A stretch of DNA of 59,647 bases from Candidatus Doudnabacteria bacterium (GCA_016788825.1 JAEUSD010000004.1:1-59647), one strand, 5' to 3'. Positions 12,741-56,056 are shown, numbered from the stretch's first letter. Notes: a model not told the origin generated them from the letters alone. Program-made: numbers and translations.

Positions 12741-13438
12741 ACACCGAAGTAATTCTGCTAGCAGTTGGGGGTACGTGGATTATCTTAAGCTTCTTCTACT
12801 GGAGGCACTACTATCTGGGGAACAAATCTGCGTTCGTCTCTTATGATCGGGTTTTTCTGGCACTTATTCTTGCGCTAGTCATAACTAGGTTAGCATCTGT
12901 AACTATTGACTACAGCTTATTAGTAAGGCCTTTTAGTGTGCTGGAGGTGGTGAGCATCTTTAACTTGCATTACTTCTATCCCTTAATTCCTGCCGCAGTC
13001 CTGCTGGCACACCAGTTTTATAGTTTCAATGTCAAATTGAACAGGCACTGGGCGGAAGAAAGTTTTCCCGCAATTTGGTATGGAATCGGTTTAACAGTTC
13101 CCATTGTTTGCGTCCAGATAGTTCGCGCGATTAGTTTGGAATGGCCAAGACAGTTCCTAGGGTTACATATCGGTCACTTGACTGTACTGGCAATTTCTTT
13201 CGTTTTGGCGTGGTACCTAAAGAAGAATAAGCTTTTGCTAAGGCTGGGTTACTTGGTTTACTTATTCCAACTGCTAGGGTTTGTACTGTCTTATCACGTC
13301 TCGCAGACTATCTCGATGGAAGAGCTAAACCTGTATTTCTCGGCTTGCGGGATTGCATTTGTATTGATATTCCTGCCGTATATTCCTTACAACTTAGCTA
13401 AGTTTGTACGCCGTAATGAACTGGTGGAAAAAGGCTGA
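12737..13438 (+). CDS. polytopic membrane protein, function unknown
   Basis: About 7 hydrophobic segments by eye. ATGA overlap with the upstream gene. Sits directly upstream of lspA, but no Lgt motifs were recognised. Confidence 0.6.
   Translation: MNTEVILLAVGGTWIILSFFYWRHYYLGNKSAFVSYDRVFLALILALVITRLASVTIDYSLLVRPFSVLEVVSIFNLHYFYPLIPAAVLLAHQFYSFNVKLNRHWAEESFPAIWYGIGLTVPIVCVQIVRAISLEWPRQFLGLHIGHLTVLAISFVLAWYLKKNKLLLRLGYLVYLFQLLGFVLSYHVSQTISMEELNLYFSACGIAFVLIFLPYIPYNLAKFVRRNELVEKG
13390..13405. repeat. TTAGCTAA-family palindrome copy (CAACTTAGCTAAGTTT)
   Basis: Inside the membrane-protein CDS (+), read as L-A-K. 14 nt are perfectly palindromic. Confidence 0.9.
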
Positions 13439-13784
13439 TTGGTTGTGGGTGGCTGCGCTCTTGGTGATTGTAGACCAGTTGCTTAAGCATACTCTCTCTG
13501 GAGAACTGGTGGTAAATCCTGGCGTTTTCTTAGGACTGATTTTGCCGAATGCGTTAATAATCCTTCTCCATGCAATATTTTTGGTCGTAGGGGTACTGTG
13601 GGGCTTGAGTAATAAAACTTATCTTGCCAAGATAGTTTTGGCTTTGGTAGTAGTCTCTGGCAGTAACTTCATAGATCGAGTGTTGTTTGGTGGGGTGATA
13701 GATTATCTCCAGATTTGGGGAGTTTGGTTTAATTTGGCTGATGTGGGGGTTAGTGTTTTTTTAGTGTTAGCCCTATTTTTCTAA
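13404..13784 (+). CDS. lspA: lipoprotein signal peptidase (signal peptidase II)
   Basis: VVNPGVFLG, NFIDRVLFGGVIDYL and FNLADVG motifs (catalytic Asp residues), four TM segments. The true start may be 13416. Confidence 0.75.
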   Translation: MYAVMNWWKKADWLWVAALLVIVDQLLKHTLSGELVVNPGVFLGLILPNALIILLHAIFLVVGVLWGLSNKTYLAKIVLALVVVSGSNFIDRVLFGGVIDYLQIWGVWFNLADVGVSVFLVLALFF

Positions 13785-13805
13785 CAGAGTATATGAAATA
13801 TAGGG

Positions 13806-13811
13806 TATAAT
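13806..13811 (+). promoter_or_regulatory. TATAAT -10 box 9 nt upstream of the ATG (leaderless-type geometry)
   Basis: ggTATAATacgtggcatATG, with no Shine-Dalgarno between the box and the start. Confidence 0.4.
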
Positions 13812-13820
13812 ACGTGGCAT

Positions 13821-22537: not shown

Positions 22538-23617
22538 TTAGTCTGTGAAGGCACCTTCCAACTTGGCTAGGAATCTGTCTGGAAAGTTCTCTTTGCGTAG
22601 TGTAGGGGAATTTACTAAAATCAGCCTAAACGCCTCTCTGATTAAAGACTTCTGATTTGTCGTGTAGCCTTGGAGGTTATCAATTACCCTATCAAACCCT
22701 AGGTTTGGGTCGTCGAGATCGAAATTAGCAAGGAGGTTGAGAACATAGCTAGTAGATTCGTCTTCCAAAATATTTTGACCGGTTATTACCTCTAGTGCGG
22801 TTATTCCGAGAGAAAAGATCTCGCTGGCATAAATATCGTAGTCCTCCACGAACTTAGTTGCATGACTGCTCATGCTTCTTGCCCTTTCGGGCGAGCTATA
22901 GCGGACAGTAAGAGATGTGTAAATAGGGTCAGGAATTCTCGTGTCAGCGGCTACATTCTTTCGTTGATCGATACAGGATGTAAGATCGATAAACATTAGG
23001 TGGCCATCGTAGTATATGAGGTTTGCTGGTTTTATGTCACAGTGGTATATTCCCATCTTGTGGAGCTCTACGACCAGGTTCACCATTTGACGTATGATTG
23101 AGAACCTCTCTTTGACCGACAGTGTCGGTATGAGGTTGTTGAGGCTGAGAGAGTCCCCGTAGGTGGCATTCTCTATCTCTGTTCCGAGGTACGGTTTAAG
23201 CAGTAAGAAGTATCTCTTATCTGTTTCTATTAAGTCTATAACTCTGGCTGTAAATCCTCTATCACTTAATTCTGCCATCAATCGCGAACTTAAGATAAAT
23301 CGCTGTACTGCTCGGGCATACTGGTTGTTTTTAGAACCTGTGATCCTAAACCTTATGTGTTCGGAAATAGTAGATGGGTCGACTACGTTCGTGTAGGGTA
23401 AAAATTCCTTAGCTAAGAACTTATGTCCATTACGTTCTGCCACAAATATATCCCCCTCCCCACCCCTTGATAGGAAACCTATCAGCGTCATAATTGCCCC
23501 GTCACGTGTTTTAAGCTCGACCCTTTTAAAGGGGGGTTGCAGAGTAGGAGTGGGATTCTGGGGGGTCGTTGATGGCCGTGGTTCTTTTTCTAGTGGTGGG
23601 GCTAATAAATCGTCCAT
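22538..23617 (-). CDS. Hanks-type Ser/Thr protein kinase-like protein (soluble, no sensor domain)
   Basis: Gly-rich loop RGGEGDIF, FLAKEF (VAIK-like Lys), catalytic HCDIKPANL, DLT in place of DFG, SPE (APE-like). Confidence 0.8.
   Translation of the reverse strand: MDDLLAPPLEKEPRPSTTPQNPTPTLQPPFKRVELKTRDGAIMTLIGFLSRGGEGDIFVAERNGHKFLAKEFLPYTNVVDPSTISEHIRFRITGSKNNQYARAVQRFILSSRLMAELSDRGFTARVIDLIETDKRYFLLLKPYLGTEIENATYGDSLSLNNLIPTLSVKERFSIIRQMVNLVVELHKMGIYHCDIKPANLIYYDGHLMFIDLTSCIDQRKNVAADTRIPDPIYTSLTVRYSSPERARSMSSHATKFVEDYDIYASEIFSLGITALEVITGQNILEDESTSYVLNLLANFDLDDPNLGFDRVIDNLQGYTTNQKSLIREAFRLILVNSPTLRKENFPDRFLAKLEGAFTD
23405..23420. repeat. TTAGCTAA-family palindrome copy (TTCCTTAGCTAAGAAC)
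   Basis: Inside the kinase CDS (-), read as F-L-A-K-E. Confidence 0.9.
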
Positions 23618-26905: not shown

Positions 26906-28831
<1,926 letters not shown>

Positions 28832-29534: not shown

Positions 29535-30239
29535 TTACTCCATAGTAATGGCCAAAGTTTCCCATGTCAACTTTTGGTTTCCGCCTGGCAGGGTAAGGAT
29601 TTTGTACGCAAGAAGGCAACTATCTAGCTGTGAATTTATCTTAATTCTCTTTTCTGGGTGAGAAATCCCCTCTTCGATTAGTCTTTTGATTAATTGTTTC
29701 ACAACTTCAAGCTGGTCTTTTTTATCTGGGAAGTCTTTTAAAACTTGTCCTGCTGTCTTGATTCTGGCTGTCACATCGGGGTGAATAAGTTGGGGAATTA
29801 CTTTCTCGTACTCGAGAGTCCCTACTTCTCCGCCTTCGAGATTGTGCACGATAACGCGCGATAGAATTGTCGCCAGCAAAGCGTGTGGCGAACGGGCAAG
29901 TAGCACAATTACCGTATCCGACCCCGGTTCTTCTAGTGTTTTTAGTAAGCTATTTTGTGCTTCCGTGGTGAGACTGTCGCTATTTTCGATCACTGCAAGC
30001 TTTAGAGGTGACTGAAAAGGTTTCAATTGGCTCCAGGCGGCAATTTTGTGAGTCTCCTCAACACCGATGCTTGCCTTGGTTTTTGCTATCAGGAGGAGGT
30101 CGGGATGGCTATCTGGCTGCAAAATTGCCGCCGCAGGTGCTGGCAGTATCTTAGCTAACTTTTCGCGGACTGCTTCGTTTAAAACTGGCGAATTTGTGAT
30201 CACCATCACACTAGGTAGATGCATACCTAATAGTAGCAT
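29535..30239 (-). CDS. holB: DNA polymerase III delta' subunit
   Basis: LLKTLEEPGSDTVIVLLA...LATILSRV clamp-loader motifs. Start chosen at 30239 or 30224, leaving a divergent promoter gap to pilB. Confidence 0.8.
   Translation of the reverse strand: MLLLGMHLPSVMVITNSPVLNEAVREKLAKILPAPAAAILQPDSHPDLLLIAKTKASIGVEETHKIAAWSQLKPFQSPLKLAVIENSDSLTTEAQNSLLKTLEEPGSDTVIVLLARSPHALLATILSRVIVHNLEGGEVGTLEYEKVIPQLIHPDVTARIKTAGQVLKDFPDKKDQLEVVKQLIKRLIEEGISHPEKRIKINSQLDSCLLAYKILTLPGGNQKLTWETLAITME
30148..30163. repeat. TTAGCTAA-family palindrome copy (TATCTTAGCTAACTTT)
   Basis: Inside holB (-), read as K-L-A-K-I. Confidence 0.9.
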
Positions 30240-30307: not shown

Positions 30308-32116
30308 ATGCCCAACGACACTGCCCAGTTAGCACAATCTACCGCCCCCTCTTCTGCAAGTAATTCCGTGCGAGGTATCACGAATATTATGGATGCCCTG
30401 TATGCAAAGGGATTGATAGATGACGAGACCCTACGACGGGTGAAGTTTGAAAGTGTAACTACTGGTCTCCCCTACGAACAAATTATTGTAAGCAAAAATA
30501 TAGTTGATGAAGAAAAGCTTCAACGTACACGTGCTGAGATGTTTGGGATTGGGTATATCGATTTAAACTCAATCTCTATTCCGAGTGAGATCTTGACCCG
30601 TATCCCGATGGATATGGCGAGGGCAAACAACGTGGTAGCGTTTGAAGAAACCGCCAACCGTGTGAAAGTTGCAATGCTGGATCCACTGGATCTTCAGCGA
30701 GTGAGTTTTCTTGAATCGTACCTTAAGAAAAAGGTAGATGCTTATTACTCTACTAACCAGGCGATTCAAAGAATTATTGATACCAAGTATGGAACTCAGA
30801 TAAATGATGAGGTGACCGAGGCACTGGAAGATGTTGGAGTGCTCGATATCTCGAGGCAAGGTGCTACTTCTGATCTAAATGAAGCAGAAATTAATTCTGC
30901 CCCAGTGGCCAAAATCGTAAATATGATCTTGGACTATGCTATTAAACATCATGCTTCTGATGTACATATTGAGCCTAGAGAAGGAAAAGTAGCCGTCCGA
31001 TATCGAATTCATGGTATTTTGGCCGAGAAGCTGACCCTACCAAATACATTGGCACCTTCGGTGATATCGCGTATCAAAATCTTAGCTAATATGAAGATTG
31101 ATGAACACCGAATACCGCAAGACAATAGGTTTCAGGTAAAAAGCGATGGGAATGCTGTAGACATTCGTGTTTCGGTTATGCCGGCGATATACGGAGAGAA
31201 GGTTGTAATGAGGTTGTTGGAAAAAGGTGGTGGTGTAATAAGCCTTGAGGGGACTGGGTTACGTGGTCCAGCATTCAAAACCTATCGCGAATCGCTAGAT
31301 AAGACGCAAGGAATTATCTTGATCACCGGGCCAACTGGAAGTGGTAAAACACAAACACTTGCTAGTTCTCTGGCAATTCTGAATGATCAAGAAGTGAATA
31401 TTTTGACTATCGAGGATCCGGTAGAAATTCGCATTGATGGTATCACTCAGGTGCAGGTTAATCCTGAAGTTGGGCTAACTTTTGCCAGTGCTATGCGCGC
31501 ATTTTTACGTCAGGACCCAGATATCATCATGGTAGGGGAAATTCGTGATGCTGAAACAGCAAATTTGGCGGTTCAGGCGGCACTGACTGGTCACTTGGTA
31601 TTGGCTACTTTGCACACAAACAGTGCCGCCGGTGCATTGCCACGGTTACTGGATATGGGTATCCAACCTTTCCTGCTTTCTTCAACGATTAATGTGATTG
31701 TGGCTCAAAGGTTGGTGCGAAGGTTATGCGACGAGTGTAAGCAGGCAATCGACCCTACTCCGCAAGCAATGGAAATGTTGCACAAGGTGCTTGACCCGCT
31801 ACATGGTTTTGATATCAAGCTAGATTCTGCTGGCCAAAAAATCCACTTTGATTCTCAAACAGAACAGGTTAAACTATACAAGCCTGTTGGATGTCCGAAA
31901 TGTGGTGACTCTGGATATCTTGGCCGAGTAGGTATTTTCGAGTGCATGCGCTCTTCCGAAAAGATTGGACAGATGGTAGTCGGACAGGTTCCGGCGAGCG
32001 ATATCGAGAAGCAAGCGATCGCTGAGGGGATGATCACAATGGTCCAAGATGGAATGATGAAAGCAATTCAAGGAGTGACTACTTTGGAGGAAGTACTGAG
32101 GGTACAAAATACTTAA
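30308..32116 (+). CDS. pilB: type IV pilus assembly ATPase PilB (GspE family)
   Basis: T2SSE N-domain, Walker A GPTGSGKTQT, Asp/His boxes, tetracysteine CDEC...CPKCGDSG. Confidence 0.92.
   Translation: MPNDTAQLAQSTAPSSASNSVRGITNIMDALYAKGLIDDETLRRVKFESVTTGLPYEQIIVSKNIVDEEKLQRTRAEMFGIGYIDLNSISIPSEILTRIPMDMARANNVVAFEETANRVKVAMLDPLDLQRVSFLESYLKKKVDAYYSTNQAIQRIIDTKYGTQINDEVTEALEDVGVLDISRQGATSDLNEAEINSAPVAKIVNMILDYAIKHHASDVHIEPREGKVAVRYRIHGILAEKLTLPNTLAPSVISRIKILANMKIDEHRIPQDNRFQVKSDGNAVDIRVSVMPAIYGEKVVMRLLEKGGGVISLEGTGLRGPAFKTYRESLDKTQGIILITGPTGSGKTQTLASSLAILNDQEVNILTIEDPVEIRIDGITQVQVNPEVGLTFASAMRAFLRQDPDIIMVGEIRDAETANLAVQAALTGHLVLATLHTNSAAGALPRLLDMGIQPFLLSSTINVIVAQRLVRRLCDECKQAIDPTPQAMEMLHKVLDPLHGFDIKLDSAGQKIHFDSQTEQVKLYKPVGCPKCGDSGYLGRVGIFECMRSSEKIGQMVVGQVPASDIEKQAIAEGMITMVQDGMMKAIQGVTTLEEVLRVQNT
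31078..31093. repeat. TTAGCTAA-family palindrome copy (AATCTTAGCTAATATG)
   Basis: Inside pilB (+), read as I-L-A-N-M. Confidence 0.9.
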
Positions 32117-32118
32117 TA

Positions 32119-32134
32119 AAAGTTAGCTAACTTT
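32119..32134. repeat. perfect 16-nt palindrome AAAGTTAGCTAACTTT filling the pilB-pilT spacer (a copy of the TTAGCTAA motif family)
   Basis: Read directly. The pilB stop is 32114-32116 and the pilT ATG is 32137. No Shine-Dalgarno is present. Confidence 0.9.
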
Positions 32135-32136: not shown

Positions 32137-34209
32137 ATGCCATTCGTAAACTTAACAAATGATCAAGGGATGACCCCACAATCTGGTGCCACATCCCCTT
32201 CAACTGTATCGTCAGCGGCAACTGCTGCGACAAATCCGAGTGTTTCACAGTCTTTGCCCACTTTGCCACCTACTCCACAGCCTTTACCTGCAGTTGCCGA
32301 CCCTATTGCCCCTCAGATTCGAGAGATAAAAGGTCCAAGCTTTGAGACTAGCGGGACGACAGCTTTGGCTCCACAGCCAACTGATCCGATTCCACCAAAT
32401 AAATTGGCTGAAGATGATTTTGATACTAAGTTGGCAGAAATAAATGCCCAACTCGCAGATGTGATTCCTGGGGATTCGAGTGGTCAATTGCTCAAAGAAG
32501 AGTCTAAGCCAGCAGTGCCGTCTGCGACAGCTGCTCTTCCAGCAGAGAAAGAGATGCCTTTGGTTGAAGATAAGCCGTTGTCGGTCAAGCAAGACAAAGA
32601 AATCCCCAAGCCAGGAGGTGTGCTTGATCTACAAGCGAAAACCCCTGTATTGACGGAAGCTTCAAAACCGCAGTCTGCTGTCCCGGTAACAAATGCAGCC
32701 CCTGCTTCAAATATTCAAGACGACTTCGATATTGTAATTGGGACCGAACAAAAATCTAACACTGAATCTAGTTCGCCAATTGCTGAAAGTAAAAATTTGG
32801 TTGCACCTCTGCTGCCCGCTGTGCAACCAGCTGCTGACAGCCCGTTGGCGCCGGCGGTAAAATCTGAAGCTGCGGGATCGACCCCTCAGCCGGCGCCGGC
32901 AGCTAAGGTTCAAGAAAACTTAGCTAACATTTCTGGTGTGCCGGAAGTAAAGCCTGTTACACCAAACGAGGTCAAACCTGTGCGTAAGGAAGAACCCAAG
33001 CCTTTGCAGATTAGTCCAAAGCCAGCTCCCCGGGTTTCTTTGCCTCCTCTGCCCTCTGATGTAACTGTTCCACAGTATGAGAAAGAGAAACTGAATCAAT
33101 TAGAGGCCGATGTAAAGATTTCGTCTGAAAGTGGTTCTAAATTGGTGACGAAAGAATACTCGCTGGATGAAATACTTCGTCAGGCAGTAAATGCGGGAGC
33201 TTCAGATGTGCACCTAAATGCAAATTATCGTGCTGTTGCTAGGGTAAATGGCAAACTACTACCTCTCCAATCAGAAGTCTTGTCGAGTGAAAAGATCAAA
33301 AAAATGGTGGGACAAGTGATTGGGAACCATCGCGATGTAGACATGGACTCAGTGTTGGACCTAGATTTGGCTTATGTTTTGCCAAATAGCACGGCACGCT
33401 TTCGAGTAAATGTTTACAAGGAGCGTGATAGTCATGCTGCTGTATTTAGGCTTATCCCAGAAAGGATCCAAACGATCGAAGAATTGGGATTACCCCCACT
33501 ATTGAGGGAATTCTTAACTTTGGAACAAGGTTTGGTATTAGTTACGGGTGCGACAGGAAGTGGAAAAAGTACCACTATCGCTACACTGGTGAACGAAATC
33601 AATCTTAAACAACCAAAGCATATTGTCACAATTGAAGACCCGATTGAATATGTTTACCCTGTGGGTAATGCAGTCGTGAGTCAGCGAGCAGTTAACTCCG
33701 ACACAGAATCATGGGCCGCTGCTCTACGTTCGGTACTGCGTCAGGATCCAGATGTTGTAGTCATTGGGGAAATGCGTGACTTGGAGACTATCTCTGCAGC
33801 TCTGCGAGTGGCAGAAACTGGACACTTGGTGTTTGGTACCTTGCACACAAATAGTGCAGCGCAAAGCGTTGATAGAATTATTGATGTTTTCCCTGAATAC
33901 CAACAAAATCAGATACGCACTCAGTTGGCTAATGTGCTGACAGCTGTGGTTTCACAGAAGTTGGTTCCTGTTGCTGGGGGAAGATTGCGGGTTGCGGTTG
34001 AAATTATGCTGGTGAACTCTGCTGTGCGTGCAGCAATTCGCGAAAATCGCGTTTACCAGATAGATAATATGATCCAAACGAGTGCCGAGGAAGGGATGAT
34101 AAGCATGGAGAAGTCTTTGATCGAATTTGTACATCAGGGTTTGATTTCTCCTGAGGTGGCACAGCAATTTGCCAACAAGCCTAGCGATTTATTAGCTTTG
34201 CTGAGATAA
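32137..34209 (+). CDS. pilT: PilT-type pilus retraction ATPase with a roughly 335-aa Pro/Ala/Ser-rich N-terminal extension
   Basis: The C-terminal 350 aa are a canonical PilT core (ASDVHL, Walker A GATGSGKST, VIGEMRD, GHLVFGTLHTNSA). The first 335 codons or so are an open, low-complexity frame. Confidence 0.85.
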   Translation: MPFVNLTNDQGMTPQSGATSPSTVSSAATAATNPSVSQSLPTLPPTPQPLPAVADPIAPQIREIKGPSFETSGTTALAPQPTDPIPPNKLAEDDFDTKLAEINAQLADVIPGDSSGQLLKEESKPAVPSATAALPAEKEMPLVEDKPLSVKQDKEIPKPGGVLDLQAKTPVLTEASKPQSAVPVTNAAPASNIQDDFDIVIGTEQKSNTESSSPIAESKNLVAPLLPAVQPAADSPLAPAVKSEAAGSTPQPAPAAKVQENLANISGVPEVKPVTPNEVKPVRKEEPKPLQISPKPAPRVSLPPLPSDVTVPQYEKEKLNQLEADVKISSESGSKLVTKEYSLDEILRQAVNAGASDVHLNANYRAVARVNGKLLPLQSEVLSSEKIKKMVGQVIGNHRDVDMDSVLDLDLAYVLPNSTARFRVNVYKERDSHAAVFRLIPERIQTIEELGLPPLLREFLTLEQGLVLVTGATGSGKSTTIATLVNEINLKQPKHIVTIEDPIEYVYPVGNAVVSQRAVNSDTESWAAALRSVLRQDPDVVVIGEMRDLETISAALRVAETGHLVFGTLHTNSAAQSVDRIIDVFPEYQQNQIRTQLANVLTAVVSQKLVPVAGGRLRVAVEIMLVNSAVRAAIRENRVYQIDNMIQTSAEEGMISMEKSLIEFVHQGLISPEVAQQFANKPSDLLALLR
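32916..32931. repeat. TTAGCTAA-family palindrome copy (AAACTTAGCTAACATT)
   Basis: Inside the pilT N-terminal extension (+), read as N-L-A-N-I. Confidence 0.9.
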
Positions 34210-38315: not shown

Positions 38316-38875
38316 GGACAAAACCTAGCAATAAAAAGTTAGCTAACATTTCTCTTGAGGCATTTTCACTGATGGAGATGGTAGTCACCATGGCTATAAT
38401 CGCTATCATTATGGTGATGTTGTCCAATGTGCTGATCAATTCGATTGTGATCTCTCAAAGAAGTATTGCACGCAGCTTTATTCGAGAAGAGGTCGCAACA
38501 GTGCTAGATTTGATCGCGATTGATATCCGCAAGGCCACGACAATAGGCGCATGCGACGGTAGTTTACTTGCCGCAAACTGTGATTTCGTGATCGGTACAG
38601 CCTACTCTTGGGAAATGTGTGATGATCCTGGTGGCTCGACAGTCAAAGTGATTTGCAAAAGAGATGCTCAAGGCAATATACTTTATTCGACATCGCCCAG
38701 CTTACAGATAGACACGTTCAGATTTGAACAAGGATATGGGTTAGTGGGTTCTGCTAGAGAAAGGAATGTGTTGGTGACCATTGTAGGGAGCCATGTAAAT
38801 ACGAAATTGTCTATTCGAAATGTGGTGAGCCAAGTGGCAATATCCAGTAGAAACTATTACTTAATTGCAAGGTAA
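38312..38875 (+). CDS. type IV prepilin-like protein (minor pilin)
   Basis: LEA|FSLMEMVVTMAIIAIIMV motif. ATGA overlap with the upstream gene. Confidence 0.7.
   Translation: MRTKPSNKKLANISLEAFSLMEMVVTMAIIAIIMVMLSNVLINSIVISQRSIARSFIREEVATVLDLIAIDIRKATTIGACDGSLLAANCDFVIGTAYSWEMCDDPGGSTVKVICKRDAQGNILYSTSPSLQIDTFRFEQGYGLVGSARERNVLVTIVGSHVNTKLSIRNVVSQVAISSRNYYLIAR
38335..38350. repeat. TTAGCTAA-family palindrome copy (AAAGTTAGCTAACATT)
   Basis: Inside the minor pilin leader (+), read as K-L-A-N-I. 19 of 20 nt are identical to the 32916 copy, flanks included. Confidence 0.9.
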
Positions 38876-41473: not shown

Positions 41474-42290
41474 AGCTAAGGCTCCGCCACCACCACAACC
41501 AGCAGGGACAAATGCGGCAGTTAATGTACCGAAAGAAAGCGATCGCCCATGGCGTCCTAAGCAAAAAAGAGAAGCAAATGACTTCGGAGCCATCCTTCGT
41601 TTGTTCGTAGTTCCTATCGTGGCCGTAACCGTGTTTATCGGCATTTTGTTTGCGTTGATTCTCCCCGGGGTGGGAGAGATATTTGCCAAGTTTGATAGTC
41701 TAGACAATATTCGGCAGAACACAGAGTCGTTAAATCAGACAATTACTCAGCTGCAGGCGCTATCTACTAGGCGTACAGAGGTAGAAAATGATTTAGAGTT
41801 GGTAAACAATATTGCCCCGGTTGGGGTGACAGAGGTAGTTGTATTCCAAAAAAAGATAGCTAACTTGGCAGCACTGAATGGGCTAACATTGGTGAAATCG
41901 CAGACAGATGAACAGATACTAGCGATCGAGAATGACAACCCAGTTTTGGGTATCAATGAGATTCCTTCTCAACTTTCCATAAATGGAACTTTGCCAAATA
42001 TCAAAAGATTTATTGAGCAGATAAAAGACCTAGAAGACTTTGTCATAATTGGTGAGATGCAGATTCGTGTTGTAGATGAGGTATCCCCTGATAGGTTGAC
42101 TGATACTTCGCTTACCTGGAATTTGGATATTACATTGGTGAAATATCAGTTCCAACAGCCCAACGAACAGAATAAGTTAGCTGAGGCCTACGCAGCTGTG
42201 CCGGTTACGGTGAAAATTGAACAAAGTATATTGGACTTTATTAGGAATAAATTTAGTACAGTAAACGAAGAAGGGTTACTAGATAACTAG
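41466..42290 (+). CDS. pilO: PilO-like bitopic pilus alignment protein
   Basis: Single TM (LFVVPIVAVTVFIGILFALIL) followed by a coiled-coil-like segment. 8-nt overlap with the pilN-like gene. Confidence 0.5.
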   Translation: MPEAKAPPPPQPAGTNAAVNVPKESDRPWRPKQKREANDFGAILRLFVVPIVAVTVFIGILFALILPGVGEIFAKFDSLDNIRQNTESLNQTITQLQALSTRRTEVENDLELVNNIAPVGVTEVVVFQKKIANLAALNGLTLVKSQTDEQILAIENDNPVLGINEIPSQLSINGTLPNIKRFIEQIKDLEDFVIIGEMQIRVVDEVSPDRLTDTSLTWNLDITLVKYQFQQPNEQNKLAEAYAAVPVTVKIEQSILDFIRNKFSTVNEEGLLDN

Positions 42291-45486: not shown

Positions 45487-45999
45487 ATGCCGCCTACTCC
45501 ACCTTTTGATAGACGACAAATAACAGGAGGCGATGTTGAATTCTTTTACGATCATACTCATCCGTTTGCGAATGTATTCTCTTCCACTATCAATTATGGG
45601 GGGAGCGAGTATCGATCTGCAGAACAAGCATACCAGTCTATGAAGTTTAATCCTGAACAGGATGCTCATATCCTGGAAGCGATTATGCAGGCCACAGAAG
45701 CTGGTCAGGCTAAAGTTATCTCGAGAACTTTTAGTGCTCATATAAGGCCAGGTTGGAATGATATAAAGTTCAGAATTATGATTAAGATTGTGTTAGCTAA
45801 GATGGAACAACACCCTGAAATTGCTGAGAGGTTATTGAACACAGGAAATAGGGTGCTGGTAGAAGATGCGCCAGATGATCCTTGCTGGGGTATGGTAACG
45901 AACGAAGTAGGTGTTGTCTCTGGGAGCAATTATATGGGCCGAGTACTCATGTTTGTAAGGTACATCTTGCAGAAAAGGGAAAAAGTGGCTGAGGTCTAA
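45487..45999 (+). CDS. NADAR (YbiA/DUF1768) family protein
   Basis: FFYDHTHPFANVFSS...YRSAEQAYQSMKF...RPGWNDIKFRIM...DPCWG motifs. Start at 45487, 2 nt after the VOC stop. Confidence 0.75.
   Translation: MPPTPPFDRRQITGGDVEFFYDHTHPFANVFSSTINYGGSEYRSAEQAYQSMKFNPEQDAHILEAIMQATEAGQAKVISRTFSAHIRPGWNDIKFRIMIKIVLAKMEQHPEIAERLLNTGNRVLVEDAPDDPCWGMVTNEVGVVSGSNYMGRVLMFVRYILQKREKVAEV
45789..45804. repeat. TTAGCTAA-family palindrome copy (TGTGTTAGCTAAGATG)
   Basis: Inside the NADAR CDS (+), read as V-L-A-K-M. Confidence 0.9.
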
Positions 46000-46005: not shown

Positions 46006-46341
46006 CTATACCTCTTCTTCGGGATGGAATTTGAGTATTATTCCAGCGTAGTCTTGAGTATTGATGTCTGCTTTCATTCCTGCTTGTTTATACAATTTGA
46101 TAATACTAAACTCCTCACGCCTACCATTATGTTCTATTAACACGCCATACAATTTCACATAGCTATTCCCATTTTGCTCAATGATCTGCCCTATCTTGGA
46201 AAGTTCTATAATACTATATCCTTTAGATAAGAAAGGAAGTTGTTGATTTAGTATCTGAATGGTTTCTTCCAAGTTGTTTGAGTTGGTTAGCTGACTTAGT
46301 GATAAGAAAGTATCTGTCATATTCCATATATAAACGTGCAA
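46006..46341 (-). CDS. hypothetical protein
   Basis: 111-codon open frame filling the gap between the NADAR and rsmD genes. No motif recognised. Confidence 0.45.
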   Translation of the reverse strand: MHVYIWNMTDTFLSLSQLTNSNNLEETIQILNQQLPFLSKGYSIIELSKIGQIIEQNGNSYVKLYGVLIEHNGRREEFSIIKLYKQAGMKADINTQDYAGIILKFHPEEEV

Positions 46342-46386: not shown

Positions 46387-46947
46387 TTATTCAGTAGCCT
46401 CTGGAACTGGATTTAGTCTCCAGTATGTCACCTGGCTTTCGCCAAATGTTTCGGTAAGGATGTGTTCTAGTGTTTCCTGGGGTAGCTCCTCTACTTTCAC
46501 GTTTAGTGGGAGGCGGAGAATAAAGATCCCCGTGGGTTTGAGGCATTGGGCGACGATGCGCGGGGCAAAATCGGCTGCTGCGGCAAATGGTGGATCGGCA
46601 AAGATAACATCGAACTGTTTATCTGTTTGAAAAACATATTTGTGAGCCTGCTTATCTGAGACTGTGGACTGTTCCTCGAAACCTAATTTAGCTATATTTT
46701 CTTTGAGTAGTTTGTTGGCGGTGTAGTCTTCTTCGACAAAGGTTGCAGAGCTTGCTCCTCTACTCAAAGCTTCTAGTCCAAAACTACCTGAACCGGCGAA
46801 GAGGTCCAGCACGTCAGCTTCCGGGATCCAATTGGCGATAGTGTCAAACAGTGACTGCTTAATACGGTCCGTCAAGGGACGGCTGCTTGGGGCCACCTGC
46901 AATTTCCTATTTTTAGCCGTCCCGGCAATTATACGAGGTTGAGACAT
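46387..46947 (-). CDS. rsmD: 16S rRNA (guanine966-N2)-methyltransferase RsmD
   Basis: RIIAGTAKNRKL, RPLTDRIKQSLF, DLFAGSGSFGLEALSRGA, IFADPPF motifs. Confidence 0.8.
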   Translation of the reverse strand: MSQPRIIAGTAKNRKLQVAPSSRPLTDRIKQSLFDTIANWIPEADVLDLFAGSGSFGLEALSRGASSATFVEEDYTANKLLKENIAKLGFEEQSTVSDKQAHKYVFQTDKQFDVIFADPPFAAAADFAPRIVAQCLKPTGIFILRLPLNVKVEELPQETLEHILTETFGESQVTYWRLNPVPEATE

Positions 46948-46977
46948 GTCAGATTATCCTGTATTAGGCCCATACGA

Positions 46978-47502
46978 TCAAGCTTTGCGGTTCAAGAATA
47001 CTACCTCTCCTCCTGTAACTAGCTTGCGCCGGTCAATGATCTTGAGGCCGTTTGTAGGTGGAATGTTGGATGTCCCAATGTGCCGATACACAACTATTCC
47101 ATCTGGTTCTAGTTTTGCCTGTATCCCTTCGAATGAGCGATGGTAGTGCTGGGGTAATGGCGGATCGATAAAAATAATGTCGTACTTTAAAATAGTATTA
47201 CGCATGAAGTCTTCTACTGTCTTGGCCTCAATTATGCCGCGTGAGGTAAGGTTAAACTTATGTAGATTTGAAGCGATGCACTCGCTTGCATCGATCGTAA
47301 TGTCTACGAATATAACTTTGGCGGCACCTTGCACGAGCGCTTCTATGCCATTGCTGCCCGAACCGGCATAGAGGTCAAGTACTTTGCTATCTTTGATACG
47401 GTTCGGGCCGAGCATTTCGAACACTTGGAGACGTGATTTATCTGGAAGGGGGACAGCACCCTTAGGGACTTTGAGCAACTTACCAGCGATGGTTATGTTC
47501 AT
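46978..47502 (-). CDS. RsmD-like SAM-dependent methyltransferase (tandem paralogue)
   Basis: ITIAGKLLKVP, DLYAGSGSNGIEALVQGA, IFIDPPL. It has the same architecture as the adjacent rsmD. Confidence 0.7.
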   Translation of the reverse strand: MNITIAGKLLKVPKGAVPLPDKSRLQVFEMLGPNRIKDSKVLDLYAGSGSNGIEALVQGAAKVIFVDITIDASECIASNLHKFNLTSRGIIEAKTVEDFMRNTILKYDIIFIDPPLPQHYHRSFEGIQAKLEPDGIVVYRHIGTSNIPPTNGLKIIDRRKLVTGGEVVFLNRKA

Positions 47503-48068: not shown

Positions 48069-48898
48069 AAAGCAATAATCAAAATCACAACAATAGAAAC
48101 AATCACCCTATACCACCCAAATGAGCTGAGACCGTGTTTCTGGAGGTAGCCTAGTAGGAAACGGATTGCCCACCAGCCAGAAATGAAGGCTGCGAGCATC
48201 CCTAAAATGTTAGCTAAGATTAGCTCTTGGCTCAGGACTTCACTCTTCAGTAAATCGTACACAGCAAGAACGCTAGTGGCCGTCAAAATTGGAATGCTCA
48301 TGAGAAACGAGAACTTGGCAGCAGCCACTCTACTCAGGCCCAATGATTGACCAGTCAAGATAGTTACCCCAGACCGAGAGATCCCCCTTATTAGGGCAAA
48401 AATCTGGCTCAGACCGATCGTAATGGCATCAACCCATCGAGTTTGGGGTAACTGTCGTTTGTGGCTGCGATGCCACCTGTCAGCGAGAATAAACAAGATT
48501 CCTACAACCCCCATGAGGATAGCCGTAATCAGCGCTGGGATGGGGAAAATAGTTTGGTCTGTATAAAAGGCATCAATCTTACTCTCTAACAATAAGCCCA
48601 CTACCCCAGCCGGGATAGTCGCCAACACGATTTTGAAAATGAGGTGGAAGTCTTGCTTGTTTTCTTCACTACCTTTGCCTAAGGTGAAAAGAGCTTTGGC
48701 ATACTGCCACAAGTCTTTGCGAAAGAATATTAGCAACGCAAGCAATGTGCCGATGTGTGTAAACAGGATGAATGTAGTTCCAGGTGACTGCCAACCAAAT
48801 AAGTCAGGGATCAGTTGTAAGTGTCCAGAGCTAGAAACAGGGATAAATTCGGTTAAGCCTTGGACAACTCCCAAAGCGATTGCTTGTGCTATATCCAT
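48065..48898 (-). CDS. uppP: undecaprenyl-diphosphate phosphatase
   Basis: GLTEFIPVSSSGHL and SRSGVTI motifs, polytopic. Start chosen at MDIAQAI (48898). Confidence 0.9.
   Translation of the reverse strand: MDIAQAIALGVVQGLTEFIPVSSSGHLQLIPDLFGWQSPGTTFILFTHIGTLLALLIFFRKDLWQYAKALFTLGKGSEENKQDFHLIFKIVLATIPAGVVGLLLESKIDAFYTDQTIFPIPALITAILMGVVGILFILADRWHRSHKRQLPQTRWVDAITIGLSQIFALIRGISRSGVTILTGQSLGLSRVAAAKFSFLMSIPILTATSVLAVYDLLKSEVLSQELILANILGMLAAFISGWWAIRFLLGYLQKHGLSSFGWYRVIVSIVVILIIAL
48206..48221. repeat. TTAGCTAA-family palindrome copy (AATGTTAGCTAAGATT)
   Basis: Inside uppP (-), read as I-L-A-N-I. 15 of 16 match the symmetric consensus. Confidence 0.9.
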
Positions 48899-48980: not shown

Positions 48981-50972
48981 TTAGATTGCCTCAAAAAGTG
49001 TAATACGACGAATACCCTCGGTATAAAGCTTTTTAGCAACTTCGCGGGCATGGAGAATCAGATTGAGGTCCTGAAAGTTGGCAATCTTCAATGGGGGAAT
49101 TCCGGATTGACGATACCCATAAACCTCTCCAGGCCCGCGGTGTTTGAGGTCAAATTCTGCAATCTCTAGCCCGTCATTTGTGTGAGCAAAGAAATCTAGG
49201 CGGGCTTGGGCGTCAGAGGACAATTCTTCGTTAGCGAATAGCAGGCACCAACTTTGGGTCTCGCCGCGGCCGACACGGCCGCGGATCTGATGCAGTTGAG
49301 CCAGCCCGAAGCGCTCTGCTCCTTCGATAACCATCACGCTGGCCCGAGGGACATCGACGCCGACTTCGATCACTGAGGTGCACACAAGCAAGTCGATGTC
49401 TCCTTGTTTGAACGCCTGCATAGTAGCTGCCTTGATATCTGGCTTCAATTGCCCGTGCAATATCCCAATTCGTACGTGAGGCAAAAGCTCTTTCAATTCC
49501 TCAAACGTCGCCAAAGCACCTTTTGCCTCCAGTTTTTCACTCTCTTCAATCAGCGGACATACCCAGTAGGCTTGATTTCCTAATTCAACTTGCTCTGTGA
49601 GCCATTTCAATGCATCCGGTCGCTTCTCCTCTGGCACTACCCTGGTGCTGATTGGTAGTCTTCCGGCGGGCTTTTGCAAGATTCTACTTACCTCCACATC
49701 ACCAAAAAGCCCAAGTGCCAGTGTCCTTGGTATCGGTGTAGCAGTCATATCTAGCTGATGGGGATAAGCTTCTGGGCTAAACTCGAGACCTATCTCGCGC
49801 TGATTAGCTCCAAAGCGGTGTTGCTCGTCCGTAATCACTAGCCCTACCTTCTTCAGTAAGGCACTTTGCCTTGCTAGGATGGCACTGGTTCCGATCAAGA
49901 TATCTGCATCTTGGGGATTTTTTGTTTCACTAGTTATCAGGGAGATTTTAGCTCCCGAGTTGGCTAAATATTTGTGAAACGTTTGTAAATGTTGTTCTGC
50001 CAGTATTGTTGTAGGCGCAAGGACTACAGTTTGTAGTCCAGCGCTGTAGGTAGCGTAACTGGCAATGACTGCGACGGCTGTTTTTCCACTGCCCACGTCT
50101 CCCTGCAGCAGCCGTCGCATAGGTTTGTCCTTGTCCATATCTGCTATTACGTCGTTTACCGCTTTCTCTTGGTCTGCTGTAAGGGCGAACGGGAGTGAGC
50201 CCGTCAATTCTTTCAGCCCTGCAGGGTCAATATGTATTCTGGGTGCGGTGTAATACATATACTTTGCTCCGGCATTCAGAGTCTTGAGCTGTAAATGAAC
50301 CAGCTCGCGTAGCTGTAGGTTCCTTGTGGCAGATTCCAAGGCTGGTTCACTGCTCGGGAAGTGTTCTTCGCGCAAATCCTTGATAATGTCTACCTGTGCG
50401 GGCAAAGCGCCATCTACCTTTGCTACTTCATCTTGCAAATCGCTGATACCTTCAAGCTGCTGCAACACCAGATCTAGCTTTGCCCGCAACCATCTGATGC
50501 CTAGTCCAGCAGTCAATGCATATTGGGGGGCGATTCGGCCCAAGTGTAGCTGCTCTTCCCCCTCTTTTACCTCTTCTACGCTTTCTGGGTAGAACTGCAA
50601 GCGGTTTTTACTCATTTTGAGATTTCCGAGTACAAGGTAGTCTACCTCTGTAGATAAAGATTTTGCCAAGTATGGCTGATTAAACCACGTTGCTTTGATA
50701 GTTCCCGAGGCGTCGGAGATTAGCGCGGTCTGTAAAGTTCTGCGTCCGGGGATTCGTACACTGCTTACCTTGGACATACGTCCCTGGATCACGTATTTAC
50801 CTTCCTTCTGCAGCTCCGAGATGTCTGTGATACTGGTTGTATCCTTATGGTAACGTGGGAAATGCGTGATGAGGTCGCGAATTGTATGGATTCCTAAGTT
50901 AGCTAACTTTTGGGCATACTTGTCGCTAATGCCAGGTAGCTCTGTGACAGGGGTATTTAACTGCATGTGCAA
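48981..50972 (-). CDS. recG: ATP-dependent DNA helicase RecG
   Basis: Wedge/OB N-domain, Walker A GDVGSGKT, DEQHRFG box, QLHQIRGRVGRG motif VI. Confidence 0.92.
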   Translation of the reverse strand: MHMQLNTPVTELPGISDKYAQKLANLGIHTIRDLITHFPRYHKDTTSITDISELQKEGKYVIQGRMSKVSSVRIPGRRTLQTALISDASGTIKATWFNQPYLAKSLSTEVDYLVLGNLKMSKNRLQFYPESVEEVKEGEEQLHLGRIAPQYALTAGLGIRWLRAKLDLVLQQLEGISDLQDEVAKVDGALPAQVDIIKDLREEHFPSSEPALESATRNLQLRELVHLQLKTLNAGAKYMYYTAPRIHIDPAGLKELTGSLPFALTADQEKAVNDVIADMDKDKPMRRLLQGDVGSGKTAVAVIASYATYSAGLQTVVLAPTTILAEQHLQTFHKYLANSGAKISLITSETKNPQDADILIGTSAILARQSALLKKVGLVITDEQHRFGANQREIGLEFSPEAYPHQLDMTATPIPRTLALGLFGDVEVSRILQKPAGRLPISTRVVPEEKRPDALKWLTEQVELGNQAYWVCPLIEESEKLEAKGALATFEELKELLPHVRIGILHGQLKPDIKAATMQAFKQGDIDLLVCTSVIEVGVDVPRASVMVIEGAERFGLAQLHQIRGRVGRGETQSWCLLFANEELSSDAQARLDFFAHTNDGLEIAEFDLKHRGPGEVYGYRQSGIPPLKIANFQDLNLILHAREVAKKLYTEGIRRITLFEAI
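50895..50910. repeat. TTAGCTAA-family palindrome copy (TAAGTTAGCTAACTTT)
   Basis: Inside recG (-), read as K-L-A-N-L. Confidence 0.9.
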
Positions 50973-53795: not shown

Positions 53796-54257
53796 TTAAG
53801 CTGCTTTTGCTGTGTCGACTAAATCCTCTTCATCCATACAACATAGCACCCCTACGTAAGTATAGGTGTCCCAGTTCCAATCCTCGTATTGGTGAAGCAG
53901 ATTGGAGTATGCACAAAGAGACTGTGCTAAGTCGATGGGTTTAATACTATGCTTTTCAGCAATATCTAGGGTGTTTTGACGGATGAAAGCTTCAATTTCT
54001 TTTGAGAAGCGGTTTTTGAAAGGGTCTTGTCCAAATCCAAGGAGAGGGATGACTTGGGAATTTACGAAGACCATTACTTCGCTAAATGCCTTTGATTCAA
54101 TAATTCTTTTATATGTATCTGTATCTACTCTACTACCCCAGTTTAGTATTGCGTGGTTTGCATATGGAGGGAATTTAGTAAATTCAAGTTCTCTTTCTGC
54201 AAGATAGTCTCTGGTTTCTGCCGTATCTAAGGGGTCGTGAATAGTTATTGTTAGCAT
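53796..54257 (-). CDS. hypothetical protein (153 aa)
   Basis: Open frame ending 5 nt from the tRNA-Ser 3' end. No motif recognised. Confidence 0.5.
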
Positions 54258-54363
54258 ATAAGGAAATGATAGATATATCTGATTATAGCATCGTAATATT
54301 ATTGGGCAAGATTATGAGGTCTCTTCTTTATTTGTGTTTCTGCCAAACTTGTAGATATGGTAA

Positions 54364-54966
54364 CTAATCCAGTGAGATTATACTCCCGCGCTTGCGAGGA
54401 ATTACTAACCTACTATGCCGTGCATCCGAAATGATGGCATTGATTTGTGTATGAGTAAGAACCGTTTGCCAGGTAGGGGTTTGAGCTTTAGCTGTTCCTC
54501 CAACTCTTGAAGTTACTCCCCATGCTGCTGCAGGGTTGTTTTTTTGAGGTATCTGGCCGCAAAATAGATGCCAGAGGAATACGAAATATTCTTTAAATCC
54601 AGGTTCAGTAAGGGGTTCCTGGCCTTCTGCCTCGAAATTTATGCCTTCTATCCAGGCATTGATACTCTTTTCAAGTTCAATAAGGTTAAGTTCTCCATTA
54701 CTCATATTATCTTGCAGGGTATCGACTAAGCAGCCAAGTGCTTCGATTGGGGGAGGTAATTTATCTTTGATCAGCAGGGCTATGTATGCCTCTCTACCCC
54801 CAATAACCTCTACGGCAGTGTTGAAAGCTTGTATAAGAAGGGGGGCTAATATAGTTTGTCTCGTTTCTGGTGTAGCGCCCGCTGTTCGTTCTAGTAATAA
54901 ACGTGTGGCTGAGAATGCTTCAAAGAGAATTTCGATATCGCCAGGTTGAGTTGCTTCATTCAACAT
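54364..54966 (-). CDS. hypothetical protein (200 aa)
   Basis: Open frame 19 nt downstream of the NTPase gene. No motif recognised. Confidence 0.55.
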   Translation of the reverse strand: MLNEATQPGDIEILFEAFSATRLLLERTAGATPETRQTILAPLLIQAFNTAVEVIGGREAYIALLIKDKLPPPIEALGCLVDTLQDNMSNGELNLIELEKSINAWIEGINFEAEGQEPLTEPGFKEYFVFLWHLFCGQIPQKNNPAAAWGVTSRVGGTAKAQTPTWQTVLTHTQINAIISDARHSRLVIPRKRGSIISLD

Positions 54967-54985
54967 ACCTGATTATATCACTACT

Positions 54986-56056
54986 CTATCCTTCTCTACT
55001 CGATTTTAGGAAGGTGGACATGATCGGTGAGAAGAGTTTGTATTTGGTACCTTCTTTCGACACCAACTTAAGTGCAAGGAGTAAACCTAAGTCTCTCGAC
55101 TCGGCGACGTCGCGGTTTTGACTGATCGAGTTTAGGATTTGGAATTGCTTCACGGTCAAAGACCCGAGCAGCCTCTGCGAGGCTAAATCTAACTCCCAAG
55201 TTGACGGAATGTTAGCTAACCCTTCCAGGCTTAGTAACCCAAGCTTCTTCGTGTAAACTGGGTATCCCCCAGTGAGCTCTTGAATACGAGCTACCTTCGC
55301 CTTGTATTTCGGGCTTCGCTGAATAATCCACCGCAAAGGTTTAAATTTAGGTAACAACGCTGACATCTGATAAGTTTCGCTAACGGTAGGAAGAGGCAGT
55401 GGGAACACACTCTGCAGCGCTAAATTCTTTAATCCCGCCCAACGATCCACATGCGAAGGCTCAAAAAGATGCGCATCTGGGATAGCGAAAATTAGGTTGA
55501 GGTGCGACTTGTATCTCTCCCTCAAAGACACGATAAACTCTGTGATATCTTCAAAACCCGGCTTCAGTATCGCCTCAACATTGTCTAGGATCAAGTAAGC
55601 AATAACATCCCGCCGCATGGCGATCATCTTGTCCAGGTAAATATAAAGATTTAACTTTGGATCAGAGCCTTCCGCCGCCAAATGCGAGTACTCTCTCTCA
55701 ATTTCAAGCTGACTAGTGGTCTGTAAATTGGCCGAGATTAAATTGCGCGTCAGAATATACAGAAGTCGGTTAAGCTTGAAATTCTCCGCAGATGGAAGCA
55801 CCGCGGAAGCGTCGATCGACGCTTCCGCGGCATATTCGTTCATATCGATATATACAAAACGCACATTATGCAATTCCCGATAACGACGCTGGTACTTATG
55901 GTTGTATGCTAGGAATTTGAGTAATTTGGTTTTTCCAAACCCCGAAGGCGCAAACAAAGTAAGGGATTGAGATTCCTGAAGCTTCCGAATCAAACTTTTG
56001 ACTTGGCTAGCAGAATAATCTGCGCCGTAGTCTTGCACTTCGGTTGCGAGTTGCAT
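54986..56056 (-). CDS. P-loop NTPase (AAA+/ORC-like or ATPase_2-like) with a C-terminal helix-turn-helix-like region
   Basis: Walker A LFAPSGFGKTKLL near the N-terminus, Walker B-like AYLILDNVE, sensor-like NLIFAIPD. The C-terminal LTVKQFQILNSISQNRDV...LLLALKLV looks like a wHTH. Confidence 0.65.
   Translation of the reverse strand: MQLATEVQDYGADYSASQVKSLIRKLQESQSLTLFAPSGFGKTKLLKFLAYNHKYQRRYRELHNVRFVYIDMNEYAAEASIDASAVLPSAENFKLNRLLYILTRNLISANLQTTSQLEIEREYSHLAAEGSDPKLNLYIYLDKMIAMRRDVIAYLILDNVEAILKPGFEDITEFIVSLRERYKSHLNLIFAIPDAHLFEPSHVDRWAGLKNLALQSVFPLPLPTVSETYQMSALLPKFKPLRWIIQRSPKYKAKVARIQELTGGYPVYTKKLGLLSLEGLANIPSTWELDLASQRLLGSLTVKQFQILNSISQNRDVAESRDLGLLLALKLVSKEGTKYKLFSPIMSTFLKSSREG
55208..55223. 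repeat. TTAGCTAA-family palindrome copy (AATGTTAGCTAACCCT)
   Basis: Inside the P-loop NTPase CDS (-), read as G-L-A-N-I. Confidence 0.9.

Follow-up and report, generated by a model that had tools for sequence, protein, structure and literature searches.

A palindromic word accumulated in unrelated genes of one Dojkabacteria sub-lineage: a putative dispersed genomic tag

Background

The DNA considered here is an entire contig of 59,647 bp (the window), 94% of it coding, and the question it raises is why one palindromic octamer, TTAGCTAA, should stand in it 12 times, in genes unrelated to one another and once between genes. Its gyrB is 63-85% identical to its matches, the named ones among which belong to Candidatus Dojkabacteria (WS6) of the Patescibacteria or candidate phyla radiation (CPR); the best GTDB match of gyrB is a Dojkabacteria metagenome-assembled genome (MAG) at 63% identity. 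The source is an uncultured, ultrasmall bacterium, and the word stands in its genes about ten times as often as codon usage would allow. We show that one Dojkabacteria sub-lineage has actively accumulated the word and partly retained it, both within genes and in non-coding DNA, and that this accumulation is recent and was paid for by amino acid replacement where needed. Some protein or process probably reads the word as a DNA signal. Its most likely role, which we put forward tentatively, is that of a putative dispersed, protein-read genomic tag of the kind represented by HIP1 of cyanobacteria and by DNA uptake sequences, with an array of the parS or Noc type as a close rival.

Excess and shape of the palindrome

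Exact copies of TTAGCTAA lie at 13394, 23409, 27672, 30151, 31082, 32123, 32920, 38339, 45793, 48210, 50899 and 55212. These are the 12 copies picked out in an earlier, sequence-only reading of the contig, with one position corrected from 30152 to 30151. The strong over-representation claimed there is confirmed, the null models expecting between 0.9 and 1.6 copies. Under dinucleotide shuffles the octamer averages 1.49 copies with a maximum of 6, and none of 100 shuffles reaches 12. An order-2 Markov model expects 0.88 copies (P=2e-10), and under it TTAGCTAA leads the palindromic octamers by far, the runner-up having a P of about 2e-3; under an order-3 model its z score of 13.9 is the highest of all 8-mers. 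The 10-mer most over-represented under the order-3 model is GTTAGCTAAC, which accounts for five of the 12 copies, and every widely dispersed 10-mer with at least five copies derives from the same motif. The excess in the window amounts to about 9-fold for the 8-mer and, by estimate, about 40-fold for the 10-mer, at a density of about 1 copy per 5 kb. The sites are listed below in coordinates of the whole window, given on one strand; being palindromic, they are assigned no strand of their own. ORF denotes an open reading frame, and residues are those encoded at the site.

Site 1, 13390..13405: caacTTAGCTAAgttt, 3' end of a 233-aa ORF of unknown function, N-L-A-K-F
Site 2, 23405..23420: ttccTTAGCTAAgaac, Ser/Thr-kinase-like gene, F-L-A-K-E
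Site 3, 27668..27683: tttgTTAGCTAAcatt, gyrB, M-L-A-N-K
Site 4, 30147..30162: tatcTTAGCTAActtt, 5' part of holB, K-L-A-K-I
Site 5, 31078..31093: aatcTTAGCTAAtatg, pilB, I-L-A-N-M
Site 6, 32119..32134: AAAGTTAGCTAACTTT, perfect 16-bp palindrome in the 20-bp pilB-pilT spacer
Site 7, 32916..32931: aaacTTAGCTAAcatt, N-terminal extension of the 690-aa PilT-like ATPase, N-L-A-N-I
Site 8, 38335..38350: aaagTTAGCTAAcatt, minor-pilin-like gene, codon 9, K-L-A-N-I
Site 9, 45789..45804: tgtgTTAGCTAAgatg, NADAR-domain gene, V-L-A-K-M
Site 10, 48206..48221: aatgTTAGCTAAgatt, uppP, I-L-A-N-I on the gene strand
Site 11, 50895..50910: taagTTAGCTAActtt, recG, codon 22, K-L-A-N-L
Site 12, 55208..55223: aatgTTAGCTAAccct, AAA/STAND-like NTPase gene, G-L-A-N-I
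Possible degenerate site, 41855..41864: aaaaGATAGCTAACttgg, one core mismatch, flanks consensus-like
Possible degenerate site, 46286..46295: GTTAGCTGAC, one core mismatch

The flanks of the 12 sites yield a 16-bp consensus of about AAWS-TTAGCTAA-SWTT. Counting outward from the core over the 24 half-sites, the first base is C in 14, G in nine and T in one (G/C in 23 of 24), the second is A or T in 22, and T occupies the third position in 19 and the fourth in 15. The half-site counts bear out the symmetric consensus of about 16 bp that the sequence-only reading had described, and its remarks on individual flanks hold as well: G/C borders the core on both sides in 11 of the 12 sites, the 10-mer is exact in the number of copies it gave, the 16-mers it quoted are correct, and the twelfth copy is indeed a perfect 16-mer in the pilB-pilT spacer. 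Recognition looks all-or-none, with only the perfect core in excess: its 24 variants with one mismatch, pooled, are seen 33 times against 30 expected, which is chance, and in the same comparison the perfect core is seen 12 times against about 1.3. The central tetramer AGCT is mildly over-represented overall (313 against 225 expected). A role as a hairpin or terminator was set aside as unlikely, as 28-nt stretches at four sites, folded as single-stranded DNA, are no stabler than shuffled sequence (z from -1.2 to +0.4). The next word family after the motif is a non-palindromic octamer, CGCTCGCG or its complement, with seven copies (6208, 10997, 11039, 21338, 26708, 26726 and 52868) against about 0.6-0.8 expected.

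A DNA-level signal distinct from codon and peptide usage

All 11 copies internal to ORFs are read as TTA-GCT-AAN. The sequence-only reading had reported this correctly and had weighed it against a chance of one third; that part of its argument falls, since the other two frames hold TAG or TAA and, the word being a palindrome, the constraint applies to both strands. TTA-GCT-AAN is the sole frame possible inside any ORF, and the frame preference was accordingly rejected as evidence. The codon-aware comparisons tell a different story. When synonymous codons were shuffled within genes, keeping every protein and each gene's codon usage, 2000 replicates averaged 1.59 copies and never exceeded 7, against the 11 observed. 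In a null conditioned on neighboring bases, with codon frequencies estimated outside Leu-Ala-(Asn/Lys) tripeptides, 1.24 copies are expected, and TTAGCTAA spells 11 of the 32 such tripeptides in the window (P=1.8e-8). A codon-aware null had been proposed in the earlier reading as a check on its claim of a DNA-level signal; the excess survives it, and the claim stands. The third codon positions flanking the core are G/C in 21 of 22 cases, against a G/C fraction of 0.445 at third positions in general (P=5e-7). The tripeptides themselves are too frequent, at 32 against 17.8 expected (P=0.0015), so the word has left an imprint on the proteins.

The proposition that chance, or the usage of codons, dipeptides or off-frame stops in Leu-Ala-Asn/Lys, would account for the word is effectively refuted for the window. 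It can claim that the forced frame makes the frame coincidence uninformative, and that codon usage alone makes the word common in AT-rich coding DNA rich in Leu-Ala-Lys, as in one phage contig with eight copies in 22 kb (L217). Against it stand the two codon-aware results, with none of the 2000 protein-preserving shuffles reaching the observed count, the bias of the flanking bases, and the intergenic copy, which is a perfect 16-bp palindrome. Selection for off-frame stops (the "ambush" idea) was considered separately and rejected: CTAGCTAA brings with it both of the word's off-frame stops and a Leu codon just as common, yet there is a single copy of it, so hidden stops are not the cause. The motif is hence a DNA-level signal in unrelated genes, and not a peptide or codon-usage effect.

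Origin and retention of individual sites

Comparison with syntenic loci of relatives indicates how particular sites came about. At the gyrB site the window reads ATG TTA GCT AAC, and three closer relatives keep Leu-Ala-Asn by means of TTG GCC or CTG GCC, which implies that the site arose by synonymous change; among other relatives, one has ATT GCT (Ile-Ala-Asn) and a more distant one TTA GCT AGC, one base off the word. Elsewhere the protein itself has changed. The pilB site (Leu-Ala-Asn) is common to the window and its nearest relative (L095), and outgroups have Leu-Ser-Asn or Leu-Ser-Gly, implying a replacement of Ser by Ala. The recG site (Leu-Ala-Asn) likewise recurs in the nearest relative (L100, position 766), with Leu-Ser-Lys, Leu-Thr-Lys or Leu-Glu-Arg in outgroups, implying a replacement of Ser/Thr by Ala. 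At the uppP site the window has Ile-Leu-Ala-Asn-Ile and the nearest relative Val-Met-Ala-Asn-Met (GTT ATG GCA AAC ATG), which implies a replacement of Met by Leu. The counterpart of site 4 in the nearest relative is CTT GCG CAG.

Of the four sites in the nearest relative, the window shares three, namely the one internal to pilB, the one at the N-terminus of recG and the core of site 6, which is kept in the same pilB-pilT spacer (L095, position 5473). Given that codon identity at conserved residues between the two is 35-45%, i.e. near saturation, the three shared sites suggest that selection or a continuing drive has kept them, though the numbers are small. Conservation of sites reaches no further than this relative. 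The sequence-only reading had proposed to ask whether orthologous genes keep the motif at synonymous sites; retention is seen in the nearest relative and no further out, and some sites were made through amino acid change.

Sites are also found in genes of restricted occurrence. The kinase-like gene with site 2 is missing from that place in the four nearest relatives, and the NADAR gene with site 9 is not present in the nearest relative's syntenic region; the accessory genes for the kinase, the NADAR protein and the NTPase, about 5% of the coding DNA, hold three of the 11 genic sites. Site 6 is the sole intergenic copy in the window, its end 6 nt ahead of the pilT ATG, and the non-coding DNA that holds it amounts to about 3.7 kb (about 6% of the window). 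The pilus cluster, about 20% of the window, has four or five of the 12 sites inside or adjoining it.

Occurrence in relatives and in other lineages

To place the excess phylogenetically, syntenic loci around gyrB and recG were compared, with expected counts from an order-3 Markov model. The relatives at 79-85% gyrB identity belong to the read sets SRR29931264/5 and SRR32741836. The loci, with identity to the window's protein, length analyzed and copies of TTAGCTAA, are as follows.

Nearest relative (L094, L095, L100): gyrB 85%, about 32 kb, 4 copies against about 1.3 expected
L096: gyrB 79%, 15.7 kb, 4 copies against 0.2 expected
L097 and L102: gyrB 74%, 19.6 kb, 1 copy against 0.7 expected
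L105: gyrB 72%, 17.8 kb, 1 copy against 0.6 expected
L098: gyrB 70%, 21.9 kb, 2 copies against 2.2 expected
L106: gyrB 68%, 21.9 kb, 0 copies against 1.0 expected
L103: gyrB 66%, 22 kb, 0 copies against 0.7 expected
L001 (GC 29%): gyrB 63%, 11.8 kb, 4 copies against 1.1 expected
L104 (GC 33%): recG 47% identical, 22 kb, 1 copy against 1.5 expected

Pooled, the relatives have 17 copies against 9.2 expected (P=0.014), and 92 control loci from other phyla (1.49 Mb) have five against 6.9. The strong excess belongs to the genome of the window and is weaker at 85% and 79% gyrB identity; it was not detected in the loci at 72% or less (L103-L106). The counts of the AT-rich L001 and L104 have to be discounted, because in AT-rich DNA with many Leu-Ala-Lys runs, as the viral contigs below illustrate, codon usage alone makes the word common. 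A search of the distant Dojkabacteria, about 22 kb each, for a replacement palindrome or a 10-mer "dialect" gave nothing convincing. Among the 17 sites in relatives, seven fall between genes, namely in the divergent region of pilB and holB, in the spacer between pilB and pilT, and downstream of gyrA. This share is just modestly above expectation, since two of the three coding frames are forbidden to the word. A conserved operator upstream of pilB or downstream of gyrA, hinted at by several relatives, was rejected, as none of these intergenic sites is seen in L105 and L106.

Two relatives have over-represented palindromes of their own: GTAATTAC occurs five times in the 15.7 kb of L096 (6764, 9373, 12530 and others) against 0.26 expected, and ATTTAAAT 11 times in the 11.8 kb of L001 against 2.8. 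A scan of metagenomes with PilB returned relatives at 49% identity or less only. Among viral contigs the 16-mer gave 110 single matches, about the chance level by a rough estimate, and the multi-copy viral loci were dismissed as tandem-repeat proteins (L151, L209) or AT-rich phage tail proteins (L112/L217). The phage contig of L217 (IMGVR_UViG_3300021197_001262; 38.9 kb, GC 32%) has, besides its eight copies of TTAGCTAA, nine of AAAGCTTT in the same 22 kb; the copies lie mostly in coiled-coil tail proteins of 1158 and 569 aa (8361-13264), and were judged a codon or peptide (Leu-Ala-Lys) effect because only eight of 16 core-flanking bases are G/C.

Candidate roles of the word

The two-fold symmetry and graded flanks suggest a symmetric reader of duplex DNA, which might be a protein dimer or an enzyme of the methyltransferase type with the AGCT centre as its target. 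Under the reading that we tentatively prefer, the word would be a dispersed tag that marks DNA as belonging to its own lineage for a DNA-processing machine, either uptake by the type IV pilus and competence apparatus or a methylation-linked step before recombination, and it would spread through preferential uptake, keeping or repair of the DNA that bears it. The all-or-none core, the surplus of information, the imprint on proteins, the turnover of sites and their lineage specificity are consistent with such a tag, as are the roughly equal enrichment in and between genes, the presence in accessory genes and a spacing that fits uniform scatter within the window (tightest five sites, P=0.10; largest gap, P=0.56). 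Patescibacteria are naturally competent (PMC10633639), and HIP1, an 8-bp palindrome with a methylase core, was reported to enhance transformation and proposed to be an uptake sequence (bioRxiv 10.64898/2026.06.24.733823). The pilus genes beside the sites are circumstantial for an uptake role. A narrower and distinctly more speculative version would make TTAGCTAA (GTTAGCTAAC) the first DNA uptake or self-recognition sequence in Patescibacteria/CPR, a palindromic tag read by the type IV pilus and competence machinery or by a methylation-dependent step downstream; it could then bias which environmental DNA is recombined by these nucleotide-scavenging competent epibionts, with a recent spread in one Dojkabacteria sub-lineage.

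Several observations weigh against a tag. The sample is 60 kb of the source genome, and both the density and the 9-fold excess are low: the DNA uptake sequences (DUS) of Neisseria and the uptake signal sequences (USS) of Pasteurellaceae are at least 100-fold enriched, at about 1 per kb, and are asymmetric, known uptake sequences not being palindromes. HIP1, for its part, is 15- to 300-fold over-represented (PMC5861425) and can exceed one copy per gene. The left 23.4 kb has just one of the 12 sites (a post hoc observation, P=0.02), and a regional distribution is possible; the share of Leu-Ala-(Asn/Lys) tripeptides converted to the word, one of ten on the left and ten of 22 on the right, does not differ significantly (P=0.11). 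Relatives more distant than about 79% gyrB identity show, in the limited sequence covered, neither the motif nor a detectable alternative dialect. Searches of the window's proteins with NCBIfam and Pfam, at lax thresholds too, found no recognisable reader and no DNA methyltransferase, the PrmC, RsmD-like and SpoU methylases present being protein or RNA methylases. The DUS receptor is the minor pilin ComP, and the window has several minor-pilin-like genes; three of these, compared with PDB sequences, gave no ComP or FimT match, the matches covering the generic N-terminal pilin helix alone at the sequence level.

The close rival, itself tentative, is that the window happens to sample one chromosomal domain in which sites for a dimeric protein of chromosome organisation or partition would be concentrated, of the kind seen in parS/ParB, Noc and its binding site (NBS), SlmA and its binding site (SBS), or MatP-matS. 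The 16-bp palindrome with graded conservation has the usual shape of a dimer site, 12 sites in 42 kb resemble known multi-parS clusters, and 11 of the 12 are to the right of 23.4 kb. The genes present are origin-like, dnaX-recR, rpsF-ssb, the dnaB helicase and gyrBA being the kind of genes found near origins in Firmicutes. Moreover, of 79 control genomes from other phyla (among loci L002-L080), 35 have a canonical parS (two or fewer mismatches) no more than 10 kb from gyrB, as a rule directly behind gyrB or gyrA. No such site was found in the Dojkabacteria loci, nor in two loci from other CPR, one from a Saccharibacteria MAG and one from an unclassified Patescibacteria MAG (L001, L003, L012 and L094-L106 in all). 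In three relatives TTAGCTAA follows gyrA, at distances of 45 bp, 256 bp and about 1 kb, in the zone that parS occupies in those other phyla. The ParB-family protein KorB binds TTTAGCGGCTAAA and its partner KorA binds TGTTTAGCTAAACA, which contains an exact TTAGCTAA (PMC11790492), the two operators thus sharing the TTAGC half-site or the whole 8-mer. On the other hand, the window shows no ParB/Noc-like gene (NCBIfam, Pfam), no dnaA and no cluster of DnaA boxes, the syntenic regions at 66-72% gyrB identity have neither the motif nor another repeated palindrome, the spacing is not significantly clustered, and cores that are all perfect, with no enrichment of near-matches, are unusual for arrays of protein sites. 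The resemblance to parS that the sequence-only reading saw in the outer arms proved not to be systematic, TG..CA arms occurring in just seven of the 24 half-sites.

A helix-turn-helix (HTH) factor of the KorA or RptR type, whose dimer would use the word as operator of a regulon including type IV pilus genes, is an unlikely reader. Sites do lie upstream of pilB in the pilB/holB divergent region of L001 (two, 43 bp apart), L096 and L098, in the window site 4 precedes the divergent pilB start by 157 bp, and both there and in the nearest relative a site stands just ahead of the start of pilT. The core can be read by small HTH dimers, as it is in the OA operator of KorA (PMC11790492) and by RptR, which reads TAGCTA/TTTAGCTAA (PMC12255303). 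However, 11 of the 12 window sites are intragenic, many of them mid-gene (gyrB, pilB, pilT, uppP), the intergenic share in relatives is not far above the expectation under the stop-codon constraint, L105 and L106 have no site upstream of pilB, and the information in the motif, estimated from its flanks, is far above regulon-sized need, with near-matches not enriched. No HTH gene was detected in the window by NCBIfam or Pfam, and no homologue of KorA or RptR was found there. Equally improbable is a by-product of biased mutation or repair with no reader at all, for instance very-short-patch-type repair tied to an AGCT methyltransferase, a bias that was reportedly once proposed for HIP1. Such a process is favored by the AGCT centre, a typical methyltransferase target, by the mild excess of that tetramer and by the confinement of the excess to perfect copies. 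Yet a process specific for 4 bp leaves 8-10 bp of near-invariant sequence and the symmetric A/T flanks unexplained, some sites needed non-synonymous changes in essential genes, three were kept across near-saturated synonymous divergence, which points to selection or a continuing drive, and the window shows no gene for a DNA methyltransferase or for Vsr.

Origin signals and composition of the window

A canonical parS or an origin inside the window was rejected. The parS consensus TGTTNCACGTGNAACA occurs with two or fewer mismatches neither in the window nor in any Dojkabacteria locus; the window's only match has three, a level reached by 19 of 100 shuffles. DnaA boxes in the window are at chance (14 against 15.5 expected). 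A 610-bp non-coding stretch between gyrA and the kinase-like gene (23618-24227), unusually long for so compact a contig, has one perfect DnaA box, TTATCCACA, at 23722, no box cluster, and no match to an Rfam family or tRNA. The baseline of the top-strand GC skew falls from about +0.17 over 1-24 kb, on genes of any strand, to about +0.03 over 24-60 kb, so that the 23.4-kb boundary in the distribution of sites coincides with a drop in skew, with no change of sign. A chimeric assembly at this junction is unlikely, because relatives conserve synteny across it.

Comparison with known iterated words and significance

Among known systems HIP1 (GCGATCGC) offers a close parallel: it too is an octameric palindrome with a methyltransferase-type centre, mostly genic, in excess of codon usage, partly conserved among related genomes and lineage-specific, and no protein is known to read it. 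Recent work connects it with natural transformation (PMC5861425; bioRxiv 10.64898/2026.06.24.733823). Like HIP1, TTAGCTAA is an octameric palindrome far above the prediction from composition or codons, both in and between genes, with a magnitude below that of HIP1; it differs in sequence and phylum, is AT-rich, has an extended 16-bp consensus and lacks a visible cognate methyltransferase in the window. With DUS and USS the motif shares the placement of a short word in unrelated genes where it costs least, lineage specificity, an effect on the tripeptide content of host proteins, and a host with type IV pilus or competence machinery; A/T-rich flanking positions are a further likeness to USS. 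Consistent with behavior of this kind, the window has the motif in common with its two nearest relatives, though with no others, and the motif is imprinted on proteins. The parS, NBS, SBS and matS sites are similar in being palindromes of 12-16 bp, bound by dimers and often intragenic. They come in tens of copies with regional placement, and the density of the motif is higher; its sequence is unrelated to parS, and presumably also to the NBS, SBS and matS consensus sequences, and no cognate gene is seen in the window. The KorA OA of IncP plasmids and the RptR operator have a central TTAGCTAA or TAGCTA identical to the motif, but they are a handful of sites at promoters on plasmids or defence islands, whereas the motif is chromosomal, numerous and mostly intragenic, with G/C beside the 8-mer instead of T/A.

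Our search of the literature found no report linking TTAGCTAA to Dojkabacteria or other CPR, or to an iterated genomic motif. The phenomenon is known in kind; what is new is the sequence, the lineage and, at moderate density, a symmetric consensus of 16 bp. A large share of bacterial diversity belongs to CPR/Patescibacteria, which are almost uncultured, have very few known regulators that bind DNA and rely on DNA and nucleotides from outside; a strongly selected, lineage-specific 16-bp word offers a concrete handle on a DNA-reading system in them. If it were a tag for uptake or self-recognition, this phenomenon would extend beyond Neisseriaceae, Pasteurellaceae and perhaps cyanobacteria, and the word might help to make CPR bacteria easier to transform genetically. 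If it were a partition or nucleoid site, it would be a non-canonical replacement of parS in a lineage seemingly without parS near gyrBA. On either reading the motif is a cheap marker for binning contigs of this Dojkabacteria sub-lineage.

Gene content and other features of the contig

The contig encodes a broad set of housekeeping functions: translation and envelope genes (frr, rseP, rpsF, prfA, prmC, efp, lspA, rnc, rpsP, uppP and glyA), replication and repair genes (dnaX, recR, ssb, the dnaB helicase, yebC, ruvCAB, gyrBA, holB and recG), and a complete type IV pilus locus with pilB, the 690-aa pilT-like ATPase, pilC, pilins, prepilin peptidase, pilM and pilO, besides RNA methylases, a copper ATPase and two tRNAs. 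A Shine-Dalgarno-like sequence lies upstream of just 11 of 66 genes, suggesting that translation initiation is largely independent of it in the source organism, and the missing Shine-Dalgarno sequence before pilT is thus normal for this genome.

Three genes, each with one copy of the motif, resemble accessory or defence-type genes: the kinase (22538-23617), which has weak MADS6/LanL-kinase similarity, the NADAR gene (45334-45999) and the NTPase (54986-56056); the first two are missing in the nearest relatives' syntenic regions, and the third lies outside every syntenic locus fetched. In the PilT-like retraction ATPase (32137-34209) the N-terminal extension, about 340 aa long, matches no family and includes a Pro/Ala/Lys-rich stretch at about residues 236-288; the protein is also long in relatives (595-721 aa), L106 excepted (405 aa). 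A tandem pair of RsmD-like (Cons_hypoth95) methyltransferase genes occupies 46387-47502, and the same tandem is found in the nearest relative (L100), with a single copy in more distant relatives.

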